This document shows positions 3,476-59,340 of a DNA stretch of 64,000 bases, in pieces. A program made the position numbers and the translations under genes. Source of the DNA: a virus (Duplodnaviria; Caudoviricetes); the IMG/VR virus record IMGVR_UViG_3300047509_000221, positions 1,949-65,948 of that record. The stretch is one strand, 5' to 3'. Below the pieces are notes generated by a model. That model worked only from the letters and a program-made list of their open reading frames with translations, had not been told where the DNA came from and ran no database searches. Each line of letters starts with the position of its first letter. Positions within the stretch are counted from its first letter, which is position 1.

Positions 3476-3783
3476 ATGCCCATGTACCTGCTGCCGCGAT
3501 AGCACGGGAATGCCAGGCACGGGAAGGTGGCTGGTGGCCGGTGCTGGGGTGGGCCGGCAAGCCACATCGTGTGGTTGCAGTCCAAGGTGAGGAACACACC
3601 GTCGGGGCGCTGGTTCACGCTGCGGACCTTCCTCATCACGCATCCTGGCGGGACTGTCCTCACGTCTCGCTCTCCATCCACTCGATGGTCTGGGTCATGC
3701 GACGAAGGGCAACGGTGCTGAAGCCGAGGCGGGCCATCAGTAGCAGGAGGCGCTCGGCCTGCCGAATGGCTCGCTGGCGTGGC

Positions 3784-4053
3784 TCACTCATCGGGCACCG
3801 GGTCGAAGAGGGAGAGGAAGCGGTCACGCTGCATGACGTAGGTGTGCGGCTCGCCCGGCTCGGGCTCCTGTGGCGAGAAGGCGACGGGGACGTCCCAGTC
3901 TCCGTCGGGCAGCCGGAGCGCCCAGCCATGGGTGGTCGCGACCACGTAGCGGCGTCCGTCGCGCTGGTACAGTCCGCCATCGAAGCCCTCGACGGGATCA
4001 CTGGCGAAGTCCTCGGGTGTCAGCTGCATGGTGTCTCCGTCCAGAGTGGGCAT
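3784..4053 (-). CDS. hypothetical protein
   Basis: ORF in a packed leftward cluster. Confidence 0.5.
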   Translation of the reverse strand: MPTLDGDTMQLTPEDFASDPVEGFDGGLYQRDGRRYVVATTHGWALRLPDGDWDVPVAFSPQEPEPGEPHTYVMQRDRFLSLFDPVPDE

Positions 4054-4289
4054 GGGGTGGGCTCGAAGCGCCGCAGGAACTCGTCCACTGGGCGGCAGAA
4101 TTCGAAACCGCGCTTGCCGTGGGGGAAGTAGCGCACGAGGGGCTGCAAGTCAGCCTCTCGTAATGTAATTCCCACCGTGACGTACACGCCCCCGGTGCCG
4201 ATGTGACGCCAGTACGACTCTGCGCCGAAGCGCGTGCGGGCCTCCTGGACAATGCGGACGAGCTGGGCGTCGGTCAGTCTGTCAGGCAC
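4020..4289 (-). CDS. DUF1653-like SH3-fold protein
   Basis: WRHIGTGGVYV...LVRY...FCRPVDEFLRRFE pattern. Confidence 0.65.
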   Translation of the reverse strand: MPDRLTDAQLVRIVQEARTRFGAESYWRHIGTGGVYVTVGITLREADLQPLVRYFPHGKRGFEFCRPVDEFLRRFEPTPCPLWTETPCS

Positions 4290-4849
4290 TGCTCAATCTC
4301 TCTCCTCGCGTCTGCGGACATCTGGCCAATGGCCAGGTCGATCACCTGCCACATCGCGTCCTCGCGGGGCTGGTGGTGTGGGTCGAAGGCGTCGGTGGGC
4401 GGCTGGCCAGAGGGGCATAGAACCAGTGGTCGCCGCCCGCGCCAGTCGTCGCTGGGCCTCTTCTCAATGATGGTGGCCGTGACTTCACTGGACTCGCTCT
4501 CGTGGTACTCGCCGGCAGGGAAGATGTACACGCTGCCAGGCTGCATCTGGTACTCGCCAGTGACCCGAATGTCGCAGTGGTGGAGCAGCCTGTCCGGGCC
4601 ATCCTCCCCGGCCTCGTAGGCAGCATAGATGTTGCGCCACTCGGTGATCTCGTGCAACATGTAGGTGCGGTGGGTCAGGCATCCCACGAGCACCCGCGAC
4701 TGCATGTCCCACACGTGACAGTGTATGGTGGCGTTGTGGCCCTCGATGGGGGGCAGGGAGGGGTGCCAGATGTGGAGTCGCCTCTGCGCAGACAGAGGCA
4801 ACTGCACAAATCCGTTGCCATGGAAGCGGGGTCGTGGCTCTCTGGCCAT
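4274..4849 (-). CDS. cupin-fold protein
   Basis: RLHIW...IHCHVWDMQSRVLVG...YHES cupin motifs. Confidence 0.65.
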   Translation of the reverse strand: MAREPRPRFHGNGFVQLPLSAQRRLHIWHPSLPPIEGHNATIHCHVWDMQSRVLVGCLTHRTYMLHEITEWRNIYAAYEAGEDGPDRLLHHCDIRVTGEYQMQPGSVYIFPAGEYHESESSEVTATIIEKRPSDDWRGRRPLVLCPSGQPPTDAFDPHHQPREDAMWQVIDLAIGQMSADARREIEQCLTD

Positions 4850-26319: not shown

Positions 26320-28970
26320 GTCTTCTCTTCGGCAGCGGAAAGCGGACCAAGCCGCAGTACACCTCTCTGCAGGTGCAGACGAGCTCGAGTAACATGCCAA
26401 TCACGCTGGCCTGGGGCCTGTGCCGCCTGTCGCCGAACTTGATCTGGTACGGGGACTTCGCCTCGCAACAGCAGAGTGCGCAGGGCGGCAAGGGCGGGGG
26501 AGGCGGCAAGGGGAGTGGTCAGTACGACTACACCGCCGCTGTTATCATGGCCCTGTGCCAGGGCGTGGCTCCGGCCATCCAGCGCATCTGGGTGGACAGC
26601 GACAAGACGTCGACGCTCACCAAGCTCAACCTGACCCTCTTCACCGGGACACACGGACAGGCTCCGTGGGACTACCTGGTCACCAATCACCCGACCGAGG
26701 CGCTGGCCTATCCGGACCTCGCCTATCTGGCGTCAACCAAGTACGATCTGGGCTCGAGCGCGGCCCTGCCGCAGCACAGCTTCGAGACTGAGTGCCGCCT
26801 GTACAATACCGCGCCGGGCGGACTCGGGGACGCCGACGTGGCGCTCGTTATCCAGGACTACATGACCGTTCCCATCTGGGGAGCGGGCTTCCCCTCGGCC
26901 GAATTGGACACCGTGTCTCTGCTGTCCTCGGGAAGTGCCGGCACGACCGGCGATGCGGCGACCGAGACATACTGCACGGCGATGGGCTTCGGGATGAGTC
27001 CGAACCTGTCCAGCCAGGAGAACGGCCTCAGCATCCTGAAGCGCTGGTGCGACATCTTCAACATTGCGCCAGTGTGGAATGGCGAGATGATGAAGTTCAT
27101 TCCGTACTCCCTGGAGGGGGTCAGCGGGAATGGTGTCATCTTCGTCCCGAACACGACCTCCGCCTTCTCCCTGACCGATGCGGACTACGTCGGCAATCCC
27201 CAGAGCCCCGACGACCCGGTGCTGGTCAAGCGACAGGACTGGACACAGGTCAAGAACCGCCTGCAGATGGAGATCTCCGACAGGCAGGACAAGGAGTACA
27301 ACGCGGTCCCGATCGAGTATGTCGAGCAGGGGCTCGTCGATCTCTACGGCGACCTCCAGGACAGTGTGTTCACGGCCCACGAGGTCTGCGAGAAGTCGGT
27401 CGCGACCAAGTGCGTCCAGATCATGGTGCAGCGCAATGCCTATCGCGGCGCCAACACGTACACCTTCAAGCTCGGCCCGGCGCACTGCCTACTTGAGCCG
27501 ATGGACCTCCTCGATGTCATGGACCCGCAGCTGGGTCTCGTGCAGGTGCAGATCGACAACTTGGACGAGGACTCAGACTTCAACGTCACGTACACCTGCA
27601 GCCAGATCTCGGTCGCAGCCTCCAACGCAGGTGGCTTCAGCAATCCGGACCAGACGCCGGGCGGAAACGACACCGGTGTTGATCCCGGCAGCGTCAACAC
27701 CCCGATCATCTTCGAGCCGCCGTCGTCACTGGCGGGGCCGACCGCGCAGGTCTGGGCCGCCATCTCCGGTGCGAGCCCGAACTGGGGTGGCTGCAACGTC
27801 TTGATCTCGACAGACGGCACGTCCTATGTCGAGATCGGGACACAGAACTCCAAGGCTCGCATGGGCCTCACGACCACAGCACTGGCGGCCTACGGGGGCA
27901 CCAACCCCGACACGACGCACAGCGTCGGCGTGGACCTGACCCAGAGCTCGGGAACACTGGTCGGCGTAACGGCGGCCGACGCCGCGACCTACGCCTCACT
28001 CTCCTACCTCGGCGGAGAATTCATCTCGTACGAGGACGCCCTCTTCACGAGCACGTACCACTACACGCTCCAGACGCAGCTGTACAGAGGTCTCTACGGC
28101 TCCTCCCCCGCATCACACCTCTCCGGGGTGCCGTTTGCCAGACTGGACGACAACATCTTCAAGTACAATCTGCCGTCACAGTACATCGGCAAGACGCTCT
28201 ACTTCAAGTTCCAGTCGTTCAACATATTCGGGCAGGCCTTCCAGGACCTGTCGACGTGCACAGCCTACACCCTCACCGTGGCCGGCACCGGCTTTGGGAC
28301 GGGCTCTGGTGGTCTTCCAGCGACTCCCACGGGCCTTGCAGGGTCGGCGGGCGCGGGCTTTGCCAAGCTGACGTGGAACGCCAACTCCGCCAACGACAAC
28401 GTCAAGAATTACGAGGTCTGGCGCGCGGCCGGACCGTCGGGCTCGTTCGGCTCCGCCACGCGCATTGGCACTCCGGCCGGGACGACCTTCACGGACACTT
28501 CGGGGGCGTATGGTGTAGTCTACACCTACTTCGTCGTTGCCGTCAACGCAGTTGGCTCGAGCGGGGCCACCTCGGGGGTCGACCTGACCGCCACACAGCC
28601 GAGCACGACGCAGCCTTTCGGCTTCGCCTTTGGGCCGAAGGTGCCGACCGCCAGTAAGATCGTCGGGGCCTTCGACTCTCCGATCGCCTGGACGATGCCG
28701 GCGAGCCTCACGAATTCCGAGGGTCGCATCATCGACAGTGACTCGGTTACGGCAGTGGCTCCCACGTCGCAGACTGACTTCGACATTCAGTCCCCGGTCG
28801 GGACCTCAATCGCCACAATGCGCTTTGCCGCCAGCTCCCTGACGGCGACCTTCATCAACACGGTCGGTGACAGCGTCGCCATTGGCTCGACTGTGTACAT
28901 CGTGGCCCCGTCAAACCTGAATGGTCTGGCCGGGGCAATCATTGGCTCCATCCTGGGGACACGGCCGTGA
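26316..28970 (+). CDS. tail tip / host specificity protein with FN3 domain
   Basis: GTA-like tail protein features (LLEPMD, RGLYGS, YFKFQSFN), followed by an FN3-like segment. Confidence 0.8.
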   Translation: MSLLFGSGKRTKPQYTSLQVQTSSSNMPITLAWGLCRLSPNLIWYGDFASQQQSAQGGKGGGGGKGSGQYDYTAAVIMALCQGVAPAIQRIWVDSDKTSTLTKLNLTLFTGTHGQAPWDYLVTNHPTEALAYPDLAYLASTKYDLGSSAALPQHSFETECRLYNTAPGGLGDADVALVIQDYMTVPIWGAGFPSAELDTVSLLSSGSAGTTGDAATETYCTAMGFGMSPNLSSQENGLSILKRWCDIFNIAPVWNGEMMKFIPYSLEGVSGNGVIFVPNTTSAFSLTDADYVGNPQSPDDPVLVKRQDWTQVKNRLQMEISDRQDKEYNAVPIEYVEQGLVDLYGDLQDSVFTAHEVCEKSVATKCVQIMVQRNAYRGANTYTFKLGPAHCLLEPMDLLDVMDPQLGLVQVQIDNLDEDSDFNVTYTCSQISVAASNAGGFSNPDQTPGGNDTGVDPGSVNTPIIFEPPSSLAGPTAQVWAAISGASPNWGGCNVLISTDGTSYVEIGTQNSKARMGLTTTALAAYGGTNPDTTHSVGVDLTQSSGTLVGVTAADAATYASLSYLGGEFISYEDALFTSTYHYTLQTQLYRGLYGSSPASHLSGVPFARLDDNIFKYNLPSQYIGKTLYFKFQSFNIFGQAFQDLSTCTAYTLTVAGTGFGTGSGGLPATPTGLAGSAGAGFAKLTWNANSANDNVKNYEVWRAAGPSGSFGSATRIGTPAGTTFTDTSGAYGVVYTYFVVAVNAVGSSGATSGVDLTATQPSTTQPFGFAFGPKVPTASKIVGAFDSPIAWTMPASLTNSEGRIIDSDSVTAVAPTSQTDFDIQSPVGTSIATMRFAASSLTATFINTVGDSVAIGSTVYIVAPSNLNGLAGAIIGSILGTRP

Positions 28971-30001
28971 ACGTACTGCTGACCGAGGGCTTCGACATGT
29001 ACAATGGGACCGGTGCCAACACCGGTCTCCAGTCCAGATGGACAGTTGCGAGCGCAGGTGGATCAATGTCCATGACCACGGGGCGCTTTGGCGGCCAGTG
29101 TCTCGCACTGGCAGACAGCACTGGCAGCACCGAGGCGGTGCGGAAGCAGCTCACCTCGTCAATGGTCAATTTCTCTTGGGGGTTTGCCTACAAGCAGGAC
29201 TCTCTCTCAGCTATCGGCAACCAGCCATTTGCGTACGTGTTGGACAGCGCAAACGGCGTGCAGCTCTCTCTTTACATTGCCTCCACTGGCGTGGTCACAC
29301 TCTACAGGGGCAACGGTGCCACGGCCATTATTACATCGGCTGTTGGTGTAATCGCTCTCTCCACGTGGGCCTACATTGAGTTGTTTGGTAAGATCGACGG
29401 GACCACGGGCACTGCTGAATTGTGGATAAATGGTGTCCAAATCGGCACCTTCAGCGGTAACACGCTGGCCACGGCCAACGTCAATATGCAGGGCATCGAA
29501 TTCGCTGCGCCGGATGCCTCAGGCAGCGGCAACAATGCCTACTTTGATGATGTATTCCTGACCGACACGGCGGCTCGCGTCGGGGAGCGCCGCATCGAGA
29601 CCCTGCGTCCGGCTGCCGACAACACGGCGATCTGGGTCCCGAACAGCGGTGTCACCAATTTCAGCAGAGTCAACGAGACGACCGTGGACGGCGACACCAG
29701 CTACGTCTCCTCGTCGAACGTGGGCGACAAGGATCTCTACACGCTGAGTGCACTGAGCAGCACCCCGGCGTCGATCGATGCCGTGAATGTTGTGTCGTTT
29801 GCCGAGAAGACGGACGCCACCACGCGCACACTCTTCAACTCAGTGCAGAGCGCCGGCACCAACAGTGACGGCTCTGCCTTCGCCCTGGCAGCCAGCTACG
29901 GGCGCTTTGACAGGCTAATCCAGACTGACCCGAATGGAGGCGGTGCCTGGACGGCCAGTCGAGTCAACGGTCTATTCATTGGTCCGAAGGTGGCTTCGTA
30001 G
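28967..30001 (+). CDS. tail protein with lectin/ConA-like domain (paralogue B)
   Basis: EGFD...GRFGG...YFDDVFL...DLYTL...DPNGGGAWT, matching 22784-23857. Confidence 0.65.
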   Translation: MNVLLTEGFDMYNGTGANTGLQSRWTVASAGGSMSMTTGRFGGQCLALADSTGSTEAVRKQLTSSMVNFSWGFAYKQDSLSAIGNQPFAYVLDSANGVQLSLYIASTGVVTLYRGNGATAIITSAVGVIALSTWAYIELFGKIDGTTGTAELWINGVQIGTFSGNTLATANVNMQGIEFAAPDASGSGNNAYFDDVFLTDTAARVGERRIETLRPAADNTAIWVPNSGVTNFSRVNETTVDGDTSYVSSSNVGDKDLYTLSALSSTPASIDAVNVVSFAEKTDATTRTLFNSVQSAGTNSDGSAFALAASYGRFDRLIQTDPNGGGAWTASRVNGLFIGPKVAS

Positions 30002-53162: not shown

Positions 53163-53434
53163 ATCGGCTCTCCTTGGCAGTATGCTGTACCGGCTCATAC
53201 ACCTCATGAGCCAGAATGTAAAGCACCATGAGCGACGGCGTCACCGAGAGAGTCCTTCGCATCGGCGGAGAGAGGCGCTGGCGCGGGAGAGAGGCGGAGC
53301 CCGGCGCTCGCTCCTGCTCAAGTGGGTTGTCCAGCTCAGGGAAGCGGCAGACTCTCTGGAGAGGAGCGCACGTGGTCACTAGCCCATCGGTCGCTCTGCA
53401 CGGTACAGTGGCCCGGACCACCGGGGGCGGGGCC

Positions 53435-54139
53435 ATGAGAATACTGCACGTCGACCACTGCGATGATCGATATCTGGAGATGGTACTCACGTGCCGGAAC
53501 CACGAGCTCGTCGTCCACTACGCCGAGGACGGGGACGAGGCCATCAGCATTCTGGTCCGCGACCCCTACGAGGTGGCCATTGTCGCGCCGGGTCTCCAAG
53601 ACTTCGAGGGCTGCGAACTCATCCGCCGTCTGCGGGCCTGCCGGGTCCACATCCCAATCATCCTCCTCGGCGACAGGACGACGCCCGAGTACCGAGCGCG
53701 GGCGCTCTGGGACGGGGCCGACGATGTGCTGGACCTGCCGTGGGCGCGAGACGAGATGGTCGCCCGCATCAAGAGCCTGGCCCGACGCTCCCACGGACAC
53801 AGCAGCGGCATCCTCAAGGTCGGCCCGCTGATCGTCGACCAGGAGCGCATGCGAGTACTCCGGGTCGGGGTCGGCGGCGGCATGCCCATCGCCATGACCG
53901 AGAAGGAGTACCTCCTCCTCGAGCTGCTGGCCATGCGGGCCGGGCGCGTCTGCACCAAGCAGCAGATCATGGACCACCTGTACGGTGGCCGCGACGAGCC
54001 CGAGGAGAAGATCATCGACGTCTTCGTCTGCAAGATCCGCCGCAAACTCGGGGAGCTGTCCTGGGTGATCGGCACAGTCTGGGGCAGAGGCTATCTCCTC
54101 CGCACCGACCAGCCCTCCCCCGCCTATGTCGCGGCCTGA
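53435..54139 (+). CDS. ctrA: CtrA-like response regulator with degenerate receiver domain
   Basis: HLYGGRDEPEEKIIDVFVCKIRRKL...TVWGRGY closely matches the CtrA DNA-binding domain; protein ends in AA. Confidence 0.85.
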   Translation: MRILHVDHCDDRYLEMVLTCRNHELVVHYAEDGDEAISILVRDPYEVAIVAPGLQDFEGCELIRRLRACRVHIPIILLGDRTTPEYRARALWDGADDVLDLPWARDEMVARIKSLARRSHGHSSGILKVGPLIVDQERMRVLRVGVGGGMPIAMTEKEYLLLELLAMRAGRVCTKQQIMDHLYGGRDEPEEKIIDVFVCKIRRKLGELSWVIGTVWGRGYLLRTDQPSPAYVAA

Positions 54140-56283: not shown

Positions 56284-56568
56284 TCATCGCGCCCTCTCCC
56301 TCATCGGCGTCAGCGGAACCCAGCCGTCTCTCCAGCGGTAGTCCAGCCTGCCCTCGTACACGTCCCGCTGCTGCTCCTCGCTCATGTGGTCGCCGGGGCA
56401 GTCGTGCGGAAGAGTCCCCTCCGCGCCACCACAGCGCTCGCAGGCGTACAGGGTGCAGAGGTGACAGATGCCTGCAGCGCAGGACTCAGTGTCACCTGGA
56501 CACCGGACACGCTTGTGTCCGTGAAAGTGAAGGATGATGGCGGTCATCTCGATCTCCGACCCTAGCAT
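56284..56568 (-). CDS. Cys-rich hypothetical protein
   Basis: C..C...CERCGGAEGTLPHDCPG...LDY..GW. Confidence 0.6.
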   Translation of the reverse strand: MLGSEIEMTAIILHFHGHKRVRCPGDTESCAAGICHLCTLYACERCGGAEGTLPHDCPGDHMSEEQQRDVYEGRLDYRWRDGWVPLTPMRERAR

Positions 56569-56602
56569 ACCCGATGAAGACCCGGTGCGAAAGGGGGCCG
56601 TC

Positions 56603-57079
56603 TTAGGAGCCCTTGCGCAGGACGCGCTCAGCCACGGTCGGGGCCGTCTGGGGCGGGGCCTCCACGCGCTCTCTGGGCGTCGAGGCGAGGGTGGATATCG
56701 CCCCGAGAAGAGAGCGCTCGGCGTCCACCTGCCTCGTCGTCGACCCGCCGAGATTGTAGGACAGGTGCGTGAGCCTGCGACCCTGTCGCCTCGCCTTGCG
56801 GCCGATGCTGCGGCGGGCCTGCTCGCCTATTCTGGGCACTTCGGTAGACGTCATCTTGCGAATACCGAGGCCACGCACAGTCTCGAACCGCATCCCAGTC
56901 CGACGCTCAACGTGCCTCCGGGCCTGGATGAGGGAGTAGCTGCTGGCGTCTATGGGACACTTCGCGACGTCGGCCAGTAGGACGTAATCCGCGATGGCGT
57001 CCATTGACAACTCAGACAGCACCTGAGACAGGGCTGCTATCTCTCGCTGTCTGGTGGGGTTCTTCCTGAACTGGATCAT
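56603..57079 (-). CDS. putative winged-helix-like accessory protein of the RAMP/pentamer-array locus
   Basis: AGGAGAG RBS; basic protein; FETVRGLGIRK wing-like hairpin. Confidence 0.65.
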   Translation of the reverse strand: MIQFRKNPTRQREIAALSQVLSELSMDAIADYVLLADVAKCPIDASSYSLIQARRHVERRTGMRFETVRGLGIRKMTSTEVPRIGEQARRSIGRKARRQGRRLTHLSYNLGGSTTRQVDAERSLLGAISTLASTPRERVEAPPQTAPTVAERVLRKGS

Positions 57080-57097
57080 GATGGTCTCTCCTGATGT

Positions 57098-57167
57098 GCG
57101 TTGCGGTGTGGTGCGCGGTGCGGTACGGTGACGTGTGGCGCCGCGTCGCTACGCGAAGCGTAGCTTG
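57098..57167 (-). ncRNA. pentamer array D (14 units), putative guide RNA
   Basis: All 14 units start with G on + (gcgtt gcggt gtggt gcgcg gtgcg gtacg gtgac gtgtg gcgcc gcgtc gctac gcgaa gcgta gcttg). Confidence 0.7.
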
Positions 57168-57168
57168 C

Positions 57169-57720
57169 TCAATCCCACTTGAAATTGCTGACCTCGTATC
57201 TTCCGAAGTATCCCCCCCGCTCGGGACGGAAGCGTCCGACCCCGACGGCGAGCCCGGCATAGCGAACTGCCTCCTCGAACACGTCAGGAGTGATCTCGTC
57301 GGCCAGGACGTGGAACTGGACCACTCCGTCCCAGTCGTCGATGCGGGGGAAGGTGCGCCACACGCGCTTGCCGGAGCCGCGAACACCGTCGGCGTTGGCA
57401 TGAATGCGCTCGGGCTGAATTTCGTCCTCACTGGCAATTGGCACGTTCTTCGTGACAATGACGCCGCTCTCGAAGAACTTGGTGTAGGTGGACTTGCCCT
57501 TGCCGGGTATCTGACGCCCCAGCATCTTGGCGGCTCGGTCGACGCCCATCTTGAAGGCCATCGCAGGAACGACGACCATGCCATTCTCGATGTGGGCCTT
57601 CTGCCTCCAGGTGCGCTTCTCGTAGTCGTCGGGCGTCTCTCTGTTCAGCTTCTCGGCGCAGTGTGCGCGACTGGCACTGTACGGTGCCTGTCCGACAAAG
57701 GTAACGGTGCAAGTTCTCAT
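57169..57720 (-). CDS. stand-alone Cas7/RAMP-like protein
   Basis: N-terminal beta strand VTFVGQAP, VPAMAFK, and C-terminal Gly-rich loop AGLAVGVGRFRPERGGYFGRYEV typical of RAMPs. Confidence 0.7.
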   Translation of the reverse strand: MRTCTVTFVGQAPYSASRAHCAEKLNRETPDDYEKRTWRQKAHIENGMVVVPAMAFKMGVDRAAKMLGRQIPGKGKSTYTKFFESGVIVTKNVPIASEDEIQPERIHANADGVRGSGKRVWRTFPRIDDWDGVVQFHVLADEITPDVFEEAVRYAGLAVGVGRFRPERGGYFGRYEVSNFKWD

Positions 57721-57744
57721 GGCGGGTCTCCGGTTGGTTTATTG

Positions 57745-58170
57745 GCGTTGCATGGTAATGCCGAGTGTGGAGCAGCGAAGCCCTGCGTTGCGTGGAGGAG
57801 CGTAGCCTCTTGGTGCATGACAACGCGACACGTGGTGGGGCGCTGTGTTGCATCGCGCCGTGGTGCTCAGCGTTGCGATGTGGGGCAGATGGTGCGTCGC
57901 GGTGAGAGGCGCTGCGGGGCGAGGCCCTGCGTAGTGCGGCGTCGCGCAGCGCAGTGGAGTGTTGCGATGCTCTGCGATGCGCAGCAAAAAGTAGGAGGGG
58001 ACGAGGCTCTGCGTTGCGATGCCATGCGGGACACTGCGGGGCGGGGCTACGCGGGACGTCGCGCAGCGGTGCGGTGAGCAGGGCAGAATTGCGTTGCGGT
58101 GCTGCGTGCAGCGGTGCGCAGAGACGCGCAGCGCCGCTGGGCCAAGAGGCGAGTAGCGCAGCGAGGACTC
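57745..58170 (-). ncRNA. pentamer arrays A (57745-57889), B (57894-57988) and C (58001-58170); putative guide RNAs
   Basis: 82 units in 5-nt phase, consensus GCG-NN on + (NN-CGC on -); 76 of 82 begin with G. Confidence 0.8.
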
Positions 58171-58180
58171 CATCTCATTA

Positions 58181-58210
58181 CATCTAGGCTGAGTATGCAT
58201 GGTTCGTAAA
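58181..58210 (-). promoter_or_regulatory. predicted promoter for the array and RAMP gene
   Basis: TTTACG-N18-TAGATG, same family as the other phage promoters, about 10 nt before the first unit. Confidence 0.55.
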
Positions 58211-58214
58211 GTCT

Positions 58215-59108
58215 TCATCCCATGCTCTCGATCATCTCGGCCAGCAGCCGCTTGTCCTCTACCTCCTGCTCGACCATCACGTCCCAGGCCTCCTCGTCGC
58301 GGATGCGCATGACCGCGTCCCGAATGAGGTCCTGGATGACCTGTGGGTCCAGAGCGTCGAGCTCCCACGACTCCTCCCCGTACAGGTCCCTGTAGGACGC
58401 GAACCGGGAGTCATTCTCCTTGGCTGGGTTGGGCGGGGGAGAGTACTGCTCGATCTGGTCCATGTTGAGCGCTAGGCGGCTGACCATGACGGGGACGCCC
58501 GCGTACAGGCTCAGCTTCTCCGCGTTGCTCTCGGTCATGTGGATTCCGCTCGGGTCGTGGTCGCCGAGGTGGAAGACGATCGGGCGCTGGCCCCGCTGGA
58601 TGTAGTCCGCGAAGCGTCGCCCGGCGCGCCAGTGCTCGCTCGTGGAGTTGTAGCCCTTCTGGGCGTAGAAGTCCACCTCGAGCCGGTTGCATATCTGGCC
58701 GACCACGCCCTCGAGCGCCTGCTTCTCGACCCAGACCTCCGGCCGGAACGGCTGGTTGGCCCACTTGTCGATGCTGTACCCGGCGAGCGCGTCCCGGAGC
58801 ACCTGCGCCGGGCTCGTCTGGTGGTTCAGTCCCATCAGGTTGCGGCCCCGGTCCTCGATCGCCGTCCACGAGATCAGGCCGACGTTCCGGCCGGTGTTGA
58901 TCGCGCCCTGGATGCGGTCGTAGGTGGCCCCGGTGTTGGGCATCCACCCGCGCTGGACGAACTGGTAGTGAATCTGGCGAACGGTCAGGGTGAAGCCCTT
59001 CTGCTCGTACTCGCCGACGACGTGGTTGATGCGCCCGATGAGGTCGACGGTGACTGACCGGAGGTTCCGCTCCTCGTACGCGATGTAGAGGCCGGTGTCC
59101 TCAGTCAC
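58215..59108 (-). CDS. TOPRIM-domain protein (Topo VI-A/JetD-like)
   Basis: TVRQIHYQFV, EVWVEK, HLGDHDPSG, RLALN..QI, WELDAL. Confidence 0.75.
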   Translation of the reverse strand: MTEDTGLYIAYEERNLRSVTVDLIGRINHVVGEYEQKGFTLTVRQIHYQFVQRGWMPNTGATYDRIQGAINTGRNVGLISWTAIEDRGRNLMGLNHQTSPAQVLRDALAGYSIDKWANQPFRPEVWVEKQALEGVVGQICNRLEVDFYAQKGYNSTSEHWRAGRRFADYIQRGQRPIVFHLGDHDPSGIHMTESNAEKLSLYAGVPVMVSRLALNMDQIEQYSPPPNPAKENDSRFASYRDLYGEESWELDALDPQVIQDLIRDAVMRIRDEEAWDVMVEQEVEDKRLLAEMIESMG

Positions 59109-59340
59109 GACTCTCGGCCTCCTGCTTGCGGACAATCTGCCGGGCTCTCCGGCCCTTGACGTCCAGAAAGCGCTCGCGGCCCATCCGGGCCACGGTCAGC
59201 GGAAACTTTGTCTGCCCCAGCAGTCTCTCGGTGTGATCCTTCGGGCGCAGGGCCACCAGGATGACGCGGTCGCGGTGTCGGCAGACGCGGTACGTGCGTC
59301 CACGATCACGAACATAGGTGTTGGTGATTGGGCTAGTCAT
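59101..59340 (-). CDS. hypothetical protein
   Basis: Basic ORF downstream of predicted promoter TTTACA-N17-TACATG. Confidence 0.5.
   Translation of the reverse strand: MTSPITNTYVRDRGRTYRVCRHRDRVILVALRPKDHTERLLGQTKFPLTVARMGRERFLDVKGRRARQIVRKQEAESRD

Follow-up and report, generated by a model that had tools for sequence, protein, structure and literature searches.

A soil phage locus with CGC-NN pentamer arrays is probably a variant VIPR system with guides matching terminase and methyltransferase genes of another phage family

Introduction

As far as the available text of the preprints cited here describes them, systems of the VIPR (Viral Interference Programmable Repeat) kind consist of a vipr gene, a vap gene and flanking vrRNAs of 9-16 GGY/NN repeats (10.64898/2026.04.26.720920). 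The cryogenic electron microscopy (cryo-EM) structure of the SUSP1 system has one protomer per repeat with the dinucleotide NN displayed, and in it G1 is contacted by H17 and D177, G2 by R138 and W178, and Y3 by R179 (10.64898/2026.04.26.720927). In pairing with double-stranded DNA, the NN pass over every third target base (10.64898/2026.04.26.720920, 10.64898/2026.04.26.720927), and the natural targets are satellites, prophages and other VIPR systems (10.64898/2026.04.26.720920). Here we analyze a locus in a 64,000-nt stretch of viral DNA (the window; positions 1,949-65,948 of IMG/VR record IMGVR_UViG_3300047509_000221; Duplodnaviria, Caudoviricetes), in which a gene on the minus strand, at 57169-57720, lies between arrays of 5-nt units with the scaffold triplet CGC. 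We conclude, with a probability of about 85%, that this locus is a VIPR system with a CGC scaffold, whose arrays would guide the silencing of a competitor.

Several features of the locus have counterparts in the same preprints. Seven VIPR types have been defined, the methods name 'NNNGG, YNNNG and NNNNG' repeats and also arrays that are staggered and have no tail, and the SUSP1 vrRNAs are sense by small-RNA sequencing (10.64898/2026.04.26.720920). Of 99 period-5 clusters reported, 21 are non-canonical (GAC/NN, CAC/NN, WGT/NN, TGH/NN) and lie near Vipr-like folds (10.64898/2026.10.21.760802). Codon-periodic targeting that prevents escape, and vrRNAs aimed at vipr genes, have also been described (10.64898/2026.10.15.759431). 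A first-pass annotation of the window, made from its letters and open reading frames (ORFs), had presented the locus as a candidate non-CRISPR RNA-guided phage system; its novelty falls, since VIPR and its non-canonical scaffolds are already in print, and the locus adds no new kind of system. What is possibly new here is the residue-level correspondence between protein and scaffold, the tail-less concatenated arrays and the natural targets. The string 'CGC' is absent from the texts of 10.64898/2026.04.26.720920 and 10.64898/2026.10.21.760802 and may appear in figures S17 and S10 or in the supplements; the passages of these two preprints available to us hold no residue-level account of scaffold switching.

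Results

Phased pentamer arrays flank a single gene

The gene is bordered on both sides by strictly 5-nt-phased DNA, which amounts to 96 units in four blocks (Table 1). Block limits were set by phase-consistent units, and segmentation with a hidden Markov model (HMM) gave the same phases and breaks. The block positions and phasing given in the first-pass annotation were exact, as judged by HMM segmentation, lag-5 identity and a scan of all 64 kb. Read on the plus strand, the units begin with G in 90 of 96 cases; the second base is C in 70 units and T in 16, and the third is G in 71. The triplet is exactly GCG in 46 units and fits GYG in 59. The dinucleotide that follows is unconstrained (0.01 bits at position 4, 0.03 at position 5) and takes all 16 possible forms, and these counts bear out the description of a fixed triplet with a leading G followed by a variable dinucleotide. 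On the strand of the gene the unit reads C-[G>A]-C plus NN, i.e. CGC-NN, with CAC as the minor variant. The locus does not carry the canonical GGY scaffold; because the literature admits non-canonical scaffolds, CGC marks it as a variant and membership in VIPR is kept.

Identity at lag 5 was 0.46 for 57721-58214 and 0.57 for 57080-57168, against 0.14-0.37 in the flanking DNA for those lags between 1 and 9 that are not multiples of 5, and the gene between the blocks showed no more than a weak signal, at lags divisible by 3. Of the 64 kb covered by a sliding scan, the two flanking regions alone rose above the mean plus 4 standard deviations (0.26 and 0.29; mean -0.015, standard deviation 0.04), and a scaffold HMM found no further arrays in the whole 65,948-bp contig. 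Tandem Repeats Finder (TRF) misses the pentamer arrays because their units are too degenerate.

Phase shifts of 4 nt and 12 nt separate block A from B and block B from C, respectively. Array D takes up the DNA from the vipr stop codon to the point where the next gene has its ribosome-binding site, array A stops 24 nt short of the vipr ATG, and the arrays directly adjoin ribosome-binding sites. Block C probably holds two or more guides, each with a CGC-AA end. Upstream of block C lies a leader with the motif GACTTTACG, which resembles, as judged by eye, a motif upstream of the arrays of a related locus (L006); this leader may be a promoter region.

The flanked gene encodes a Vipr protein with a RAMP fold

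The product of the gene is a RAMP by fold and a Vipr by sequence, as phrog_4652 membership, BLASTP, a profile match to a SUSP1 structure, and structure prediction and comparison all indicate. The protein has no Pfam or NCBIfam match. The family phrog_4652 matches the window protein (E 8e-10) as well as SUSP1 Vipr (E 1.4e-96) and its homologue in LESphi2 (E 8.5e-66), and BLASTP aligns the window protein with SUSP1 Vipr over 92 residues that include the G-loop (32% identity, E 6e-7) and with the LESphi2 protein over its full length (26%, E 4e-13). A clade profile made of the window protein and 103 representatives matched PDB chain 36pp_D, 'SUSP1 Vipr protein', at E 2.5e-12, the sole other match being a ribosomal protein at E 1.3. 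The profile match and the PHROG family common to both proteins uphold the first-pass suggestion that VIPR is the nearest described system. The SUSP1 record is that of Escherichia phage phiSUSP1, in which GGT-NN arrays, read on the gene strand, lie on either side of genes 28474-29061(-) and 28031-28471(-). The family as a whole numbers 1,857 proteins in a word-based search and 1,142 clusters at 50% identity in an exhaustive search (E <= 1e-3).

The AlphaFold2 (AF2) model of the protein has a predicted local distance difference test score (pLDDT) of 97.7 and a predicted template modelling score of 0.90. Foldseek returned 140 PDB matches at E <= 1e-3, and among the matches listed the top ranks were all taken by backbone subunits of CRISPR RAMP complexes (type VII Cas7, Csm3, Cmr). 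VIA-align superimposed the model on type VII Cas7 (8z4j_F) with Z 12.6 and a root-mean-square deviation of 4.3 over 153 residues, and on Csm3 (6ifl_F) with Z 12.5 and a deviation of 3.2 over 154 residues, with residues 1-183 covered. Sequence identity to the Cas7 and Csm3 chains is 6-13%. The Cas7/Csm3-like fold anticipated by the first-pass annotation is therefore what structure prediction and Foldseek returned. The G-loop GVGRFRPERGGYFGRY aligns with the G-loop of SUSP1 Vipr, and the thumb was located solely via alignment to the SUSP1 region around R138. As to the further statement that the stretch holds neither cas genes nor a repeat-spacer array, a Cas1 HMM had no match in the contig and TRF found no CRISPR-like repeat-spacer array in the window; no separate search was made for cas3 or cas5.

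Related loci also carry arrays, which probably read on the strand of the gene

We compared the locus with 31 related loci, 25 from IMG/VR and 6 from genomes, the latter including Rhizorhabdus, Devosia riboflavina, an alphaproteobacterial metagenome-assembled genome, Allocoleopsis and Bryobacterales. Period-5 blocks flank the gene in 30 of the 31, down to 37% protein identity; the sole locus without them (L033) is a weak partial match. In the clade of the window the blocks are C-rich on the gene strand, and CGC is the top period-5 triplet on that strand, alone or tied, in 22 of the 23 loci grouped under CGC (L031 has no CGC count). The same crude count in the window ranks the rotated triplet GCA first and CGC second. 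Locus listings show (CGC-NN)n runs, often with CGC-AA at the end, and the unit counts together with the triplets of the clade sustain the earlier reading of the scaffold as CGC on the gene strand.

More distant relatives carry other triplets on the gene strand: CTC (L012, L013, L029), AAC (L022) and GAC (L023, L027), with GGY-NN in SUSP1, LESphi2 and DSL-LC04. Position 3 of the triplet is a pyrimidine in all scaffolds seen. The AAC scaffold rests on one locus and GAC on two, because searches with the L022 and L023 proteins gave no further contigs.

Two of these relatives have strand-specific features beside their arrays. In L022, whose Vipr is 41% identical, each (AAC-NN)n array in the region 3640-4600 is followed, on the gene strand, by an element of about 45 nt in which a 7-bp acceptor-like stem encloses a 5-bp hairpin with a UUCGAUU loop, equivalent to the T-arm-like motif GGTTCGATTCC. 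This element has nothing at Rfam gathering thresholds; as a tRNA-like spacer, it could be a substrate of RNase P or RNase Z. The word 'tRNA' does not occur in the text of bioRxiv 10.64898/2026.04.26.720920 available to us. In L023, (GAY-NN)n arrays are followed by hairpin tails, likewise on the gene strand. Since the relatives carry their strand-specific features on the strand of the gene, array D takes up the space from vipr to the vap-like gene, and the arrays adjoin ribosome-binding sites, we read the window arrays as (CGC-NN)n RNAs that are very probably transcribed from the minus strand.

Some related loci depart from the common arrangement. L019 has an extra period-5 block (1531-1676) about 0.8 kb upstream of vipr, which is G-rich on the gene strand (GnGnn) and opposite in orientation to the other array of that locus. 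In L006, a conserved spacer of about 45 nt (AAGGATTT.. to ..GAGTTAACC; 1380-1424 and 2134-2178) separates successive arrays of 11-16 units; it has no significant fold (z = 0.26), and it may act as an internal promoter, because its GACTTT(A/T) also occurs in the window's leader, upstream of block C. In L017, a 459-aa SNF2-like ORF downstream of vipr (1470-2849) reads through a 16-unit pentamer array at 2224-2303, and could be two genes parted by the array or a gene with an array inside it. Finally, L017:1364-1463 and L020:3063-3152 are reminiscent of the published vrRNAs aimed at the ends of vipr genes.

Two guides match TerL and ParB-methyltransferase codons of one phage family

For target searches, NN strings were rewritten as NNx patterns under the published 1-nt-skip rule; such a pattern is its own reverse complement in form. 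Guide A, in block A, spells the antisense of the motif (D/E)YSVCTTWGL of the terminase large subunit (TerL), and guide B, in block B, spells the antisense of the motif GSLYRSQHE(L/F)(I/M)L of a ParB-DNA-methyltransferase. In both cases the skipped base is the wobble position. Guide A fits a 12-unit RNA of which the last two units (CA, AA) are unpaired.

In IMG/VR, 8-unit seeds of guides A and B found 87 and 45 stretches, respectively, and 80 of the 87 were taken as loci for follow-up; two block C guides, again with 8-unit seeds, found 11 and 14, and guide D, with a seed of 9 units, found none. In three contigs an A and a B site share a strand and are separated by 1.9-2.2 kb; chance would account for about 0.001 such contigs. 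The match also continues beyond the seeds: guide B agrees with locus L239 at 28 of 32 bases and at 12 of the 16 bases left free by the seed (P = 3.8e-5), and guide A agrees with locus L340 in 10 of 10 units. The A site lies inside terminase large subunit genes (phrog_38, E 4e-98 and 5e-105), and the B site lies about 2 kb upstream of it, inside ParB-DNA-methyltransferase genes (phrog_498, E 1e-66 and 2e-119). The 4-9-kb contigs that hold these sites were considered as possible microviruses, a reading that was rejected (CheckV 8-12% complete, TerL present).

A search through 401 genomes from the class to which Devosia riboflavina belongs, with at most two mismatches allowed, found matches to guide A in 9 genomes, compared to 1 match for the backwards control. 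One of them (G201) has a perfect 10-unit site in a TerL ORF (phrog_38, E 2e-100; peptide NDYSVCTTWGL). In four genomes picked by guide A alone, the best match of guide B lay 1.8-2.15 kb off on the same strand, and in three of the four it exceeded all 8 shuffles (14.0 vs 10.5, 16.5 vs 10.5 and 15.5 vs 12.5); in the fourth it scored 9.0 vs 11.5 for a shuffle. The TerL and methyltransferase genes that guides A and B match belong to a single alphaproteobacterial (pro)phage family.

No guide had a self-target above shuffled guides in the phage contig or in the 31 related loci, and the phage itself has no homologues of the targeted TerL and methyltransferase genes. The whole phages G001-G003 and G005 contained no guide matches besides the seeded ones, and guide D had no match above controls in the contig, IMG/VR, the related loci or the genomes.

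The spacing of the skip was examined across 33 loci and the phage contig. A skip of 1 alone gave an outlier, with a score of 20 vs a shuffled maximum of 16 (12 runs): a CGC-type guide of L020 (4589-4683) against the codons of SNF2 motif V (GQILAGGVGLTLVSK) in the helicase-like gene beside vipr. This guide agrees with L017:2601-2657 at 28 of 38 bases and with the copy in its own locus (L020:4275-4331), which differs by a synonymous Leu codon, at 27 of 38, the skipped base being codon position 3. Both self-regulation and targeting of relatives are possible roles for it.

Scaffold triplets and the residues at the SUSP1 contact positions

We set a Vipr alignment over all loci against the cryo-EM contacts of SUSP1 (10.64898/2026.04.26.720927). 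Both readers of G1 are replaced in the window protein (H17 by S17, D177 by R163), which keeps the aromatic residue that stacks on G2 (W178, here F164) and the arginine at Y3 (R179, here R165). In GGY loci the G-loop carries D-[W/Y/F]-R, together with R138 and, in 2 of 3, H17; in each of the 23 CGC loci position 17 is S and the G-loop carries R-F-R. The G-loop reads T-F-R in CTC loci, R-F-R in the AAC locus, and S-L-R and F-F-R in GAC loci; the position of SUSP1 D177 is thus occupied by D, R, T, R, and S or F in GGY, CGC, CTC, AAC and GAC loci, respectively. H17 is lost in all non-GGY clades and the Y3 arginine is invariant. Wherever G1 is replaced, both SUSP1 residues that contact it are replaced too, and the aromatic at base 2 is kept. 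With so few independent clades, this correspondence, drawn from aligned sequences, is a lead and not a result.

A conserved putative accessory gene and the surrounding phage

The gene after array D, which the first-pass annotation had called winged helix-turn-helix (wHTH)-like, has homologues adjoining vipr in 13 related loci (tblastn); a word-based protein search with it found one other protein. Neither Pfam nor NCBIfam has a match for its product. An alignment of 11 sequences gave an AF2 model (pLDDT 83.8) with the topology helix-strand-helix-helix-strand-strand (residues 8-75) followed by two long helices. Foldseek gave no match at E <= 1e-3; its best rows were weak (E 0.06-0.5, the top one a wHTH at 0.064), and many were winged-helix proteins (PurR, OmpR-type, MarR, GntR). 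The modeled topology and weak fold matches suggest that the protein is wHTH-like, in line with the earlier call, and the gene is probably a vap.

Table 1. Features of the locus, in window coordinates
Feature	Position	Strand	Description
vipr gene	57169-57720	-	183 aa; RAMP with RRM core and G-loop GVGRFRPERGGYFGRY
Array block D	57098-57167	-	12-14 units filling the vipr-vap intergenic gap (14 in the + strand frame)
Array block A	57743-57887	-	29 units, contains guide A (+ strand frame 57745-57889)
Array block B	57892-57996	-	21 units, contains guide B (+ strand frame 57894-57988, 19 units)
Array block C	57999-58163	-	33 units, CGC-NN frame (+ strand frame 58001-58170, 34 units)
Guide A	57798-57847	-	10 units; NN = AG CC CA GT GT CA AC GA TA TC
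Guide B, units 3-15	57917-57981	-	NN = AT AG AT AA TC TG TG GA CG TA AG CT CC
Leader upstream of block C, possible promoter region	58164-58214	-	GACTTTACG, like the motif upstream of the L006 arrays
vap-like accessory gene	56603-57079	-	158 aa; predicted winged-helix N-terminal domain, then two long helices

The whole record is a single virus contig of 65,948 bp with a CheckV completeness of 100%. Its products include a terminase, portal, tape-measure protein, DNA polymerase, helicases, thymidylate synthase, the small subunit of ribonucleotide reductase and a response-regulator-like protein, and no tRNA was found in the window. The nearest portal homologues in the phage collection are those of two Brevundimonas phages (43% identity), and the host is probably alphaproteobacterial.

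Three further genes of the window were recorded. A 303-aa response-regulator-like protein with a C-terminal DNA-binding domain is encoded at 53228-54139 (+) and belongs to phrog_731 (E 1.5e-39). The gene directly upstream of the array leader, at 58215-59135 (-), matches phrog_6247 ('DNA topoisomerase', E 3e-95) and nothing in Pfam or NCBIfam. The vap-like gene is followed directly downstream, on its own strand, by 56284-56568 (-), which encodes a cysteine-rich protein of 94 aa that has no family match and does not adjoin vipr in the related loci (tblastn).

Discussion

The assignment of the locus to VIPR follows from the Vipr homology of its protein, the RAMP fold, and the arrays that flank the gene in 30 of 31 related loci. 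The most likely arrangement is an operon on the minus strand that runs from the leader through arrays C, B and A to vipr, array D and vap, in which the arrays would most likely be co-transcribed with vipr and cut into vrRNAs of roughly 8-17 5'-CGC-NN-3' units. By homology, Vipr protomers would assemble as filaments on these RNAs, each binding one repeat, burying CGC and exposing NN, and the NN would pair with double-stranded DNA, with every third base of the target passed over. At least two guides would be aimed at conserved codons of TerL and a ParB-methyltransferase in one alphaproteobacterial (pro)phage family, and the likely function of the system would be to repress, and so silence, the packaging module of a competitor during co-infection or in lysogens. 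The wHTH protein may act as a DNA-binding accessory.

A number of observations weigh against this reading. A sigma-70 scan of 56400-58400 found 0 sites on either strand, and the promoter-like motif that the first-pass annotation had placed about 10 nt before block C was not confirmed by it. The window arrays have no structured 3' tail like the SUSP1 pseudoknot. Rfam yielded no family match, with one sub-threshold snoRNA-like match in the region (E 0.83) and none in 17 loci. The limits of individual vrRNAs are guesses, and a general rule by which CGC-AA marks the vrRNA 3' end was discarded: it fits guide A, but the guide B match crosses an internal CGC-AA unit. The only public sequencing run listed with DNA of the contig is a soil DNA metagenome, which may be its source, and no RNA run is listed. 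On the protein side, the G-loop residue and the scaffold do not correspond one to one (R goes with CGC and AAC, S or F with GAC), and the vap-like protein reaches an hhalign probability of just 2.3% against SUSP1 vap1.

The target evidence has weak points of its own. Guide B has no perfect match anywhere, its best being 28 of 32 bases, and a 10-unit pattern of guide D had 4 matches in the 401 genomes vs 12 for the control. The guides of block C match at or near chance. Four of the 11 IMG/VR matches of guide 1 extend into the N-terminus of a 323-aa protein, at 6 of 14 free bases (P = 0.11). Five of the 14 matches of guide 2 fall in ThiF-family genes, at 9 of 14 free bases (P = 0.002). When one unit was made a wildcard post hoc, a scan of metagenomes returned 116 stretches, of which 80 were examined; their free bases agreed about as chance would have it (best 27/30), and ThiF is unproven as a target. 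Furthermore, because the NNx pattern is symmetric under reverse complement, target matches are blind to the strand of the RNA.

That last point bears on the strongest alternative, which keeps the VIPR assignment and reverses the strand: the arrays would be transcribed from the plus strand, antisense to vipr, as (GYG-NN)n, with the G-rich strand as the guide. Such units, with G at position 1 in 90 of 96, look superficially more like GGY than CGC does; the promoter scan came up empty on both strands, and the target matches suit both equally. We nevertheless consider plus-strand guides improbable. The relatives whose strand can be judged (SUSP1, LESphi2, DSL-LC04, L022 and L023) all have their arrays in gene-strand orientation, position 3 being a pyrimidine, and CGC is the top gene-strand triplet, alone or tied, in nearly all loci grouped under it. 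Moreover, array D sits in a 90-nt gap between co-oriented genes, with no space for an antisense promoter or terminator, and the CGC-AA array ends next to a downstream ribosome-binding site parallel the GGC-AA ends of LESphi2.

It is very unlikely that the arrays act as DNA, as iterons or curved DNA, or are decaying relics, with the Vipr homologue serving an unrelated role. The arrays of the window are known here from DNA alone and their scaffolds are degenerate, with exact GCG in fewer than half of the plus-strand units, as such a role or decay would allow. However, arrays accompany the gene across nearly all related loci with NN unconstrained, and the NN of two guides spell conserved codons of two syntenic genes under the skip rule, a match that an iteron role does not predict. 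That the locus is what remains of a CRISPR-Cas system, or a minimal form of one, with a lone Cas7/Csm3 beside a degenerate array, is hardly credible: its best structural matches are indeed Cas7 and Csm3, but at 6-13% identity, whereas by sequence it matches SUSP1 Vipr, and the contig has no Cas1 by HMM, TRF finds no repeat-spacer array, and the repeat period is 5 nt and not 60-79 nt.

If the locus is a VIPR system with a CGC scaffold, it widens the range in which the system is met. VIPR was described in 2026, mostly from enterobacterial and Pseudomonas phages, and the window comes from a high-GC soil phage with another scaffold. The locus offers a testable pairing of scaffold bases with G-loop residues and could supply an orthogonal scaffold/protein pair for engineering. 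Targets in the most highly conserved codons of the terminase and methyltransferase of a rival prophage back the model of inter-phage warfare outside the original hosts, and synonymous mutations in these targets would give no escape, because the guides read codon positions 1 and 2. A more speculative thought, which we hold only tentatively and think rather doubtful as it stands, is that the scaffold triplet is a clade-specific code set by the protein, and that the tail-less concatenated arrays and the tRNA-like spacers of L022 represent further processing routes. Were it true, co-infecting phages would run mutually orthogonal VIPR systems, proof against hijack by each other's solo vrRNAs, and new processing routes would join the pseudoknot, staggered and hammerhead forms in print.

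Among described systems, the window locus is closest to the type II VIPR of SUSP1. The two have homologous Vipr proteins (PDB 36pp, E 2.5e-12) in a common PHROG family, a two-gene operon with period-5 arrays on both sides on the gene strand, hypervariable NN, and 1-nt-skip targets in which the skipped base falls at the wobble position in genes of a competing mobile element. They differ in scaffold (CGC vs GGY) and in the G1 readers, where H17 is replaced by S and D177 by R. Unlike those of SUSP1, the window guides lack a pseudoknot tail and follow one another head to tail, with a phase shift now and then. No sequence homology to vap1 (phrog_5926) could be detected for the accessory gene, and the phage differs in habitat (soil), GC content (high) and host (probably alphaproteobacterial).

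The non-canonical VIPR arrays likewise have a period of 5 and an alternative triplet by a Vipr-like fold, and their CAC is the minor variant of the window, so far as the available text describes them (10.64898/2026.10.21.760802). The window unit CGC-NN, rewritten as Y-NN-C-G, also fits the 'YNNNG' repeats named in the methods text of 10.64898/2026.04.26.720920. With the backbone proteins of class 1 CRISPR systems (Cas7, Csm3, Cmr4) the window protein has in common the RAMP/RRM fold and the G-loop (Z about 12), as well as, by homology, oligomerization along a guide RNA with periodic base flipping. In contrast to those systems, which have a period of 6 nt with 5 paired bases per subunit, the window system has a period of 5 nt with 2 bases predicted to pair per subunit, and it is phage-encoded without a CRISPR array (TRF) or Cas1 (HMM). 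TIGR-Tas, as named in the text of 10.64898/2026.10.21.760802, is similar in having a non-CRISPR tandem guide array that adjoins its effector, and differs in its period of 18 nt and its unrelated effector.

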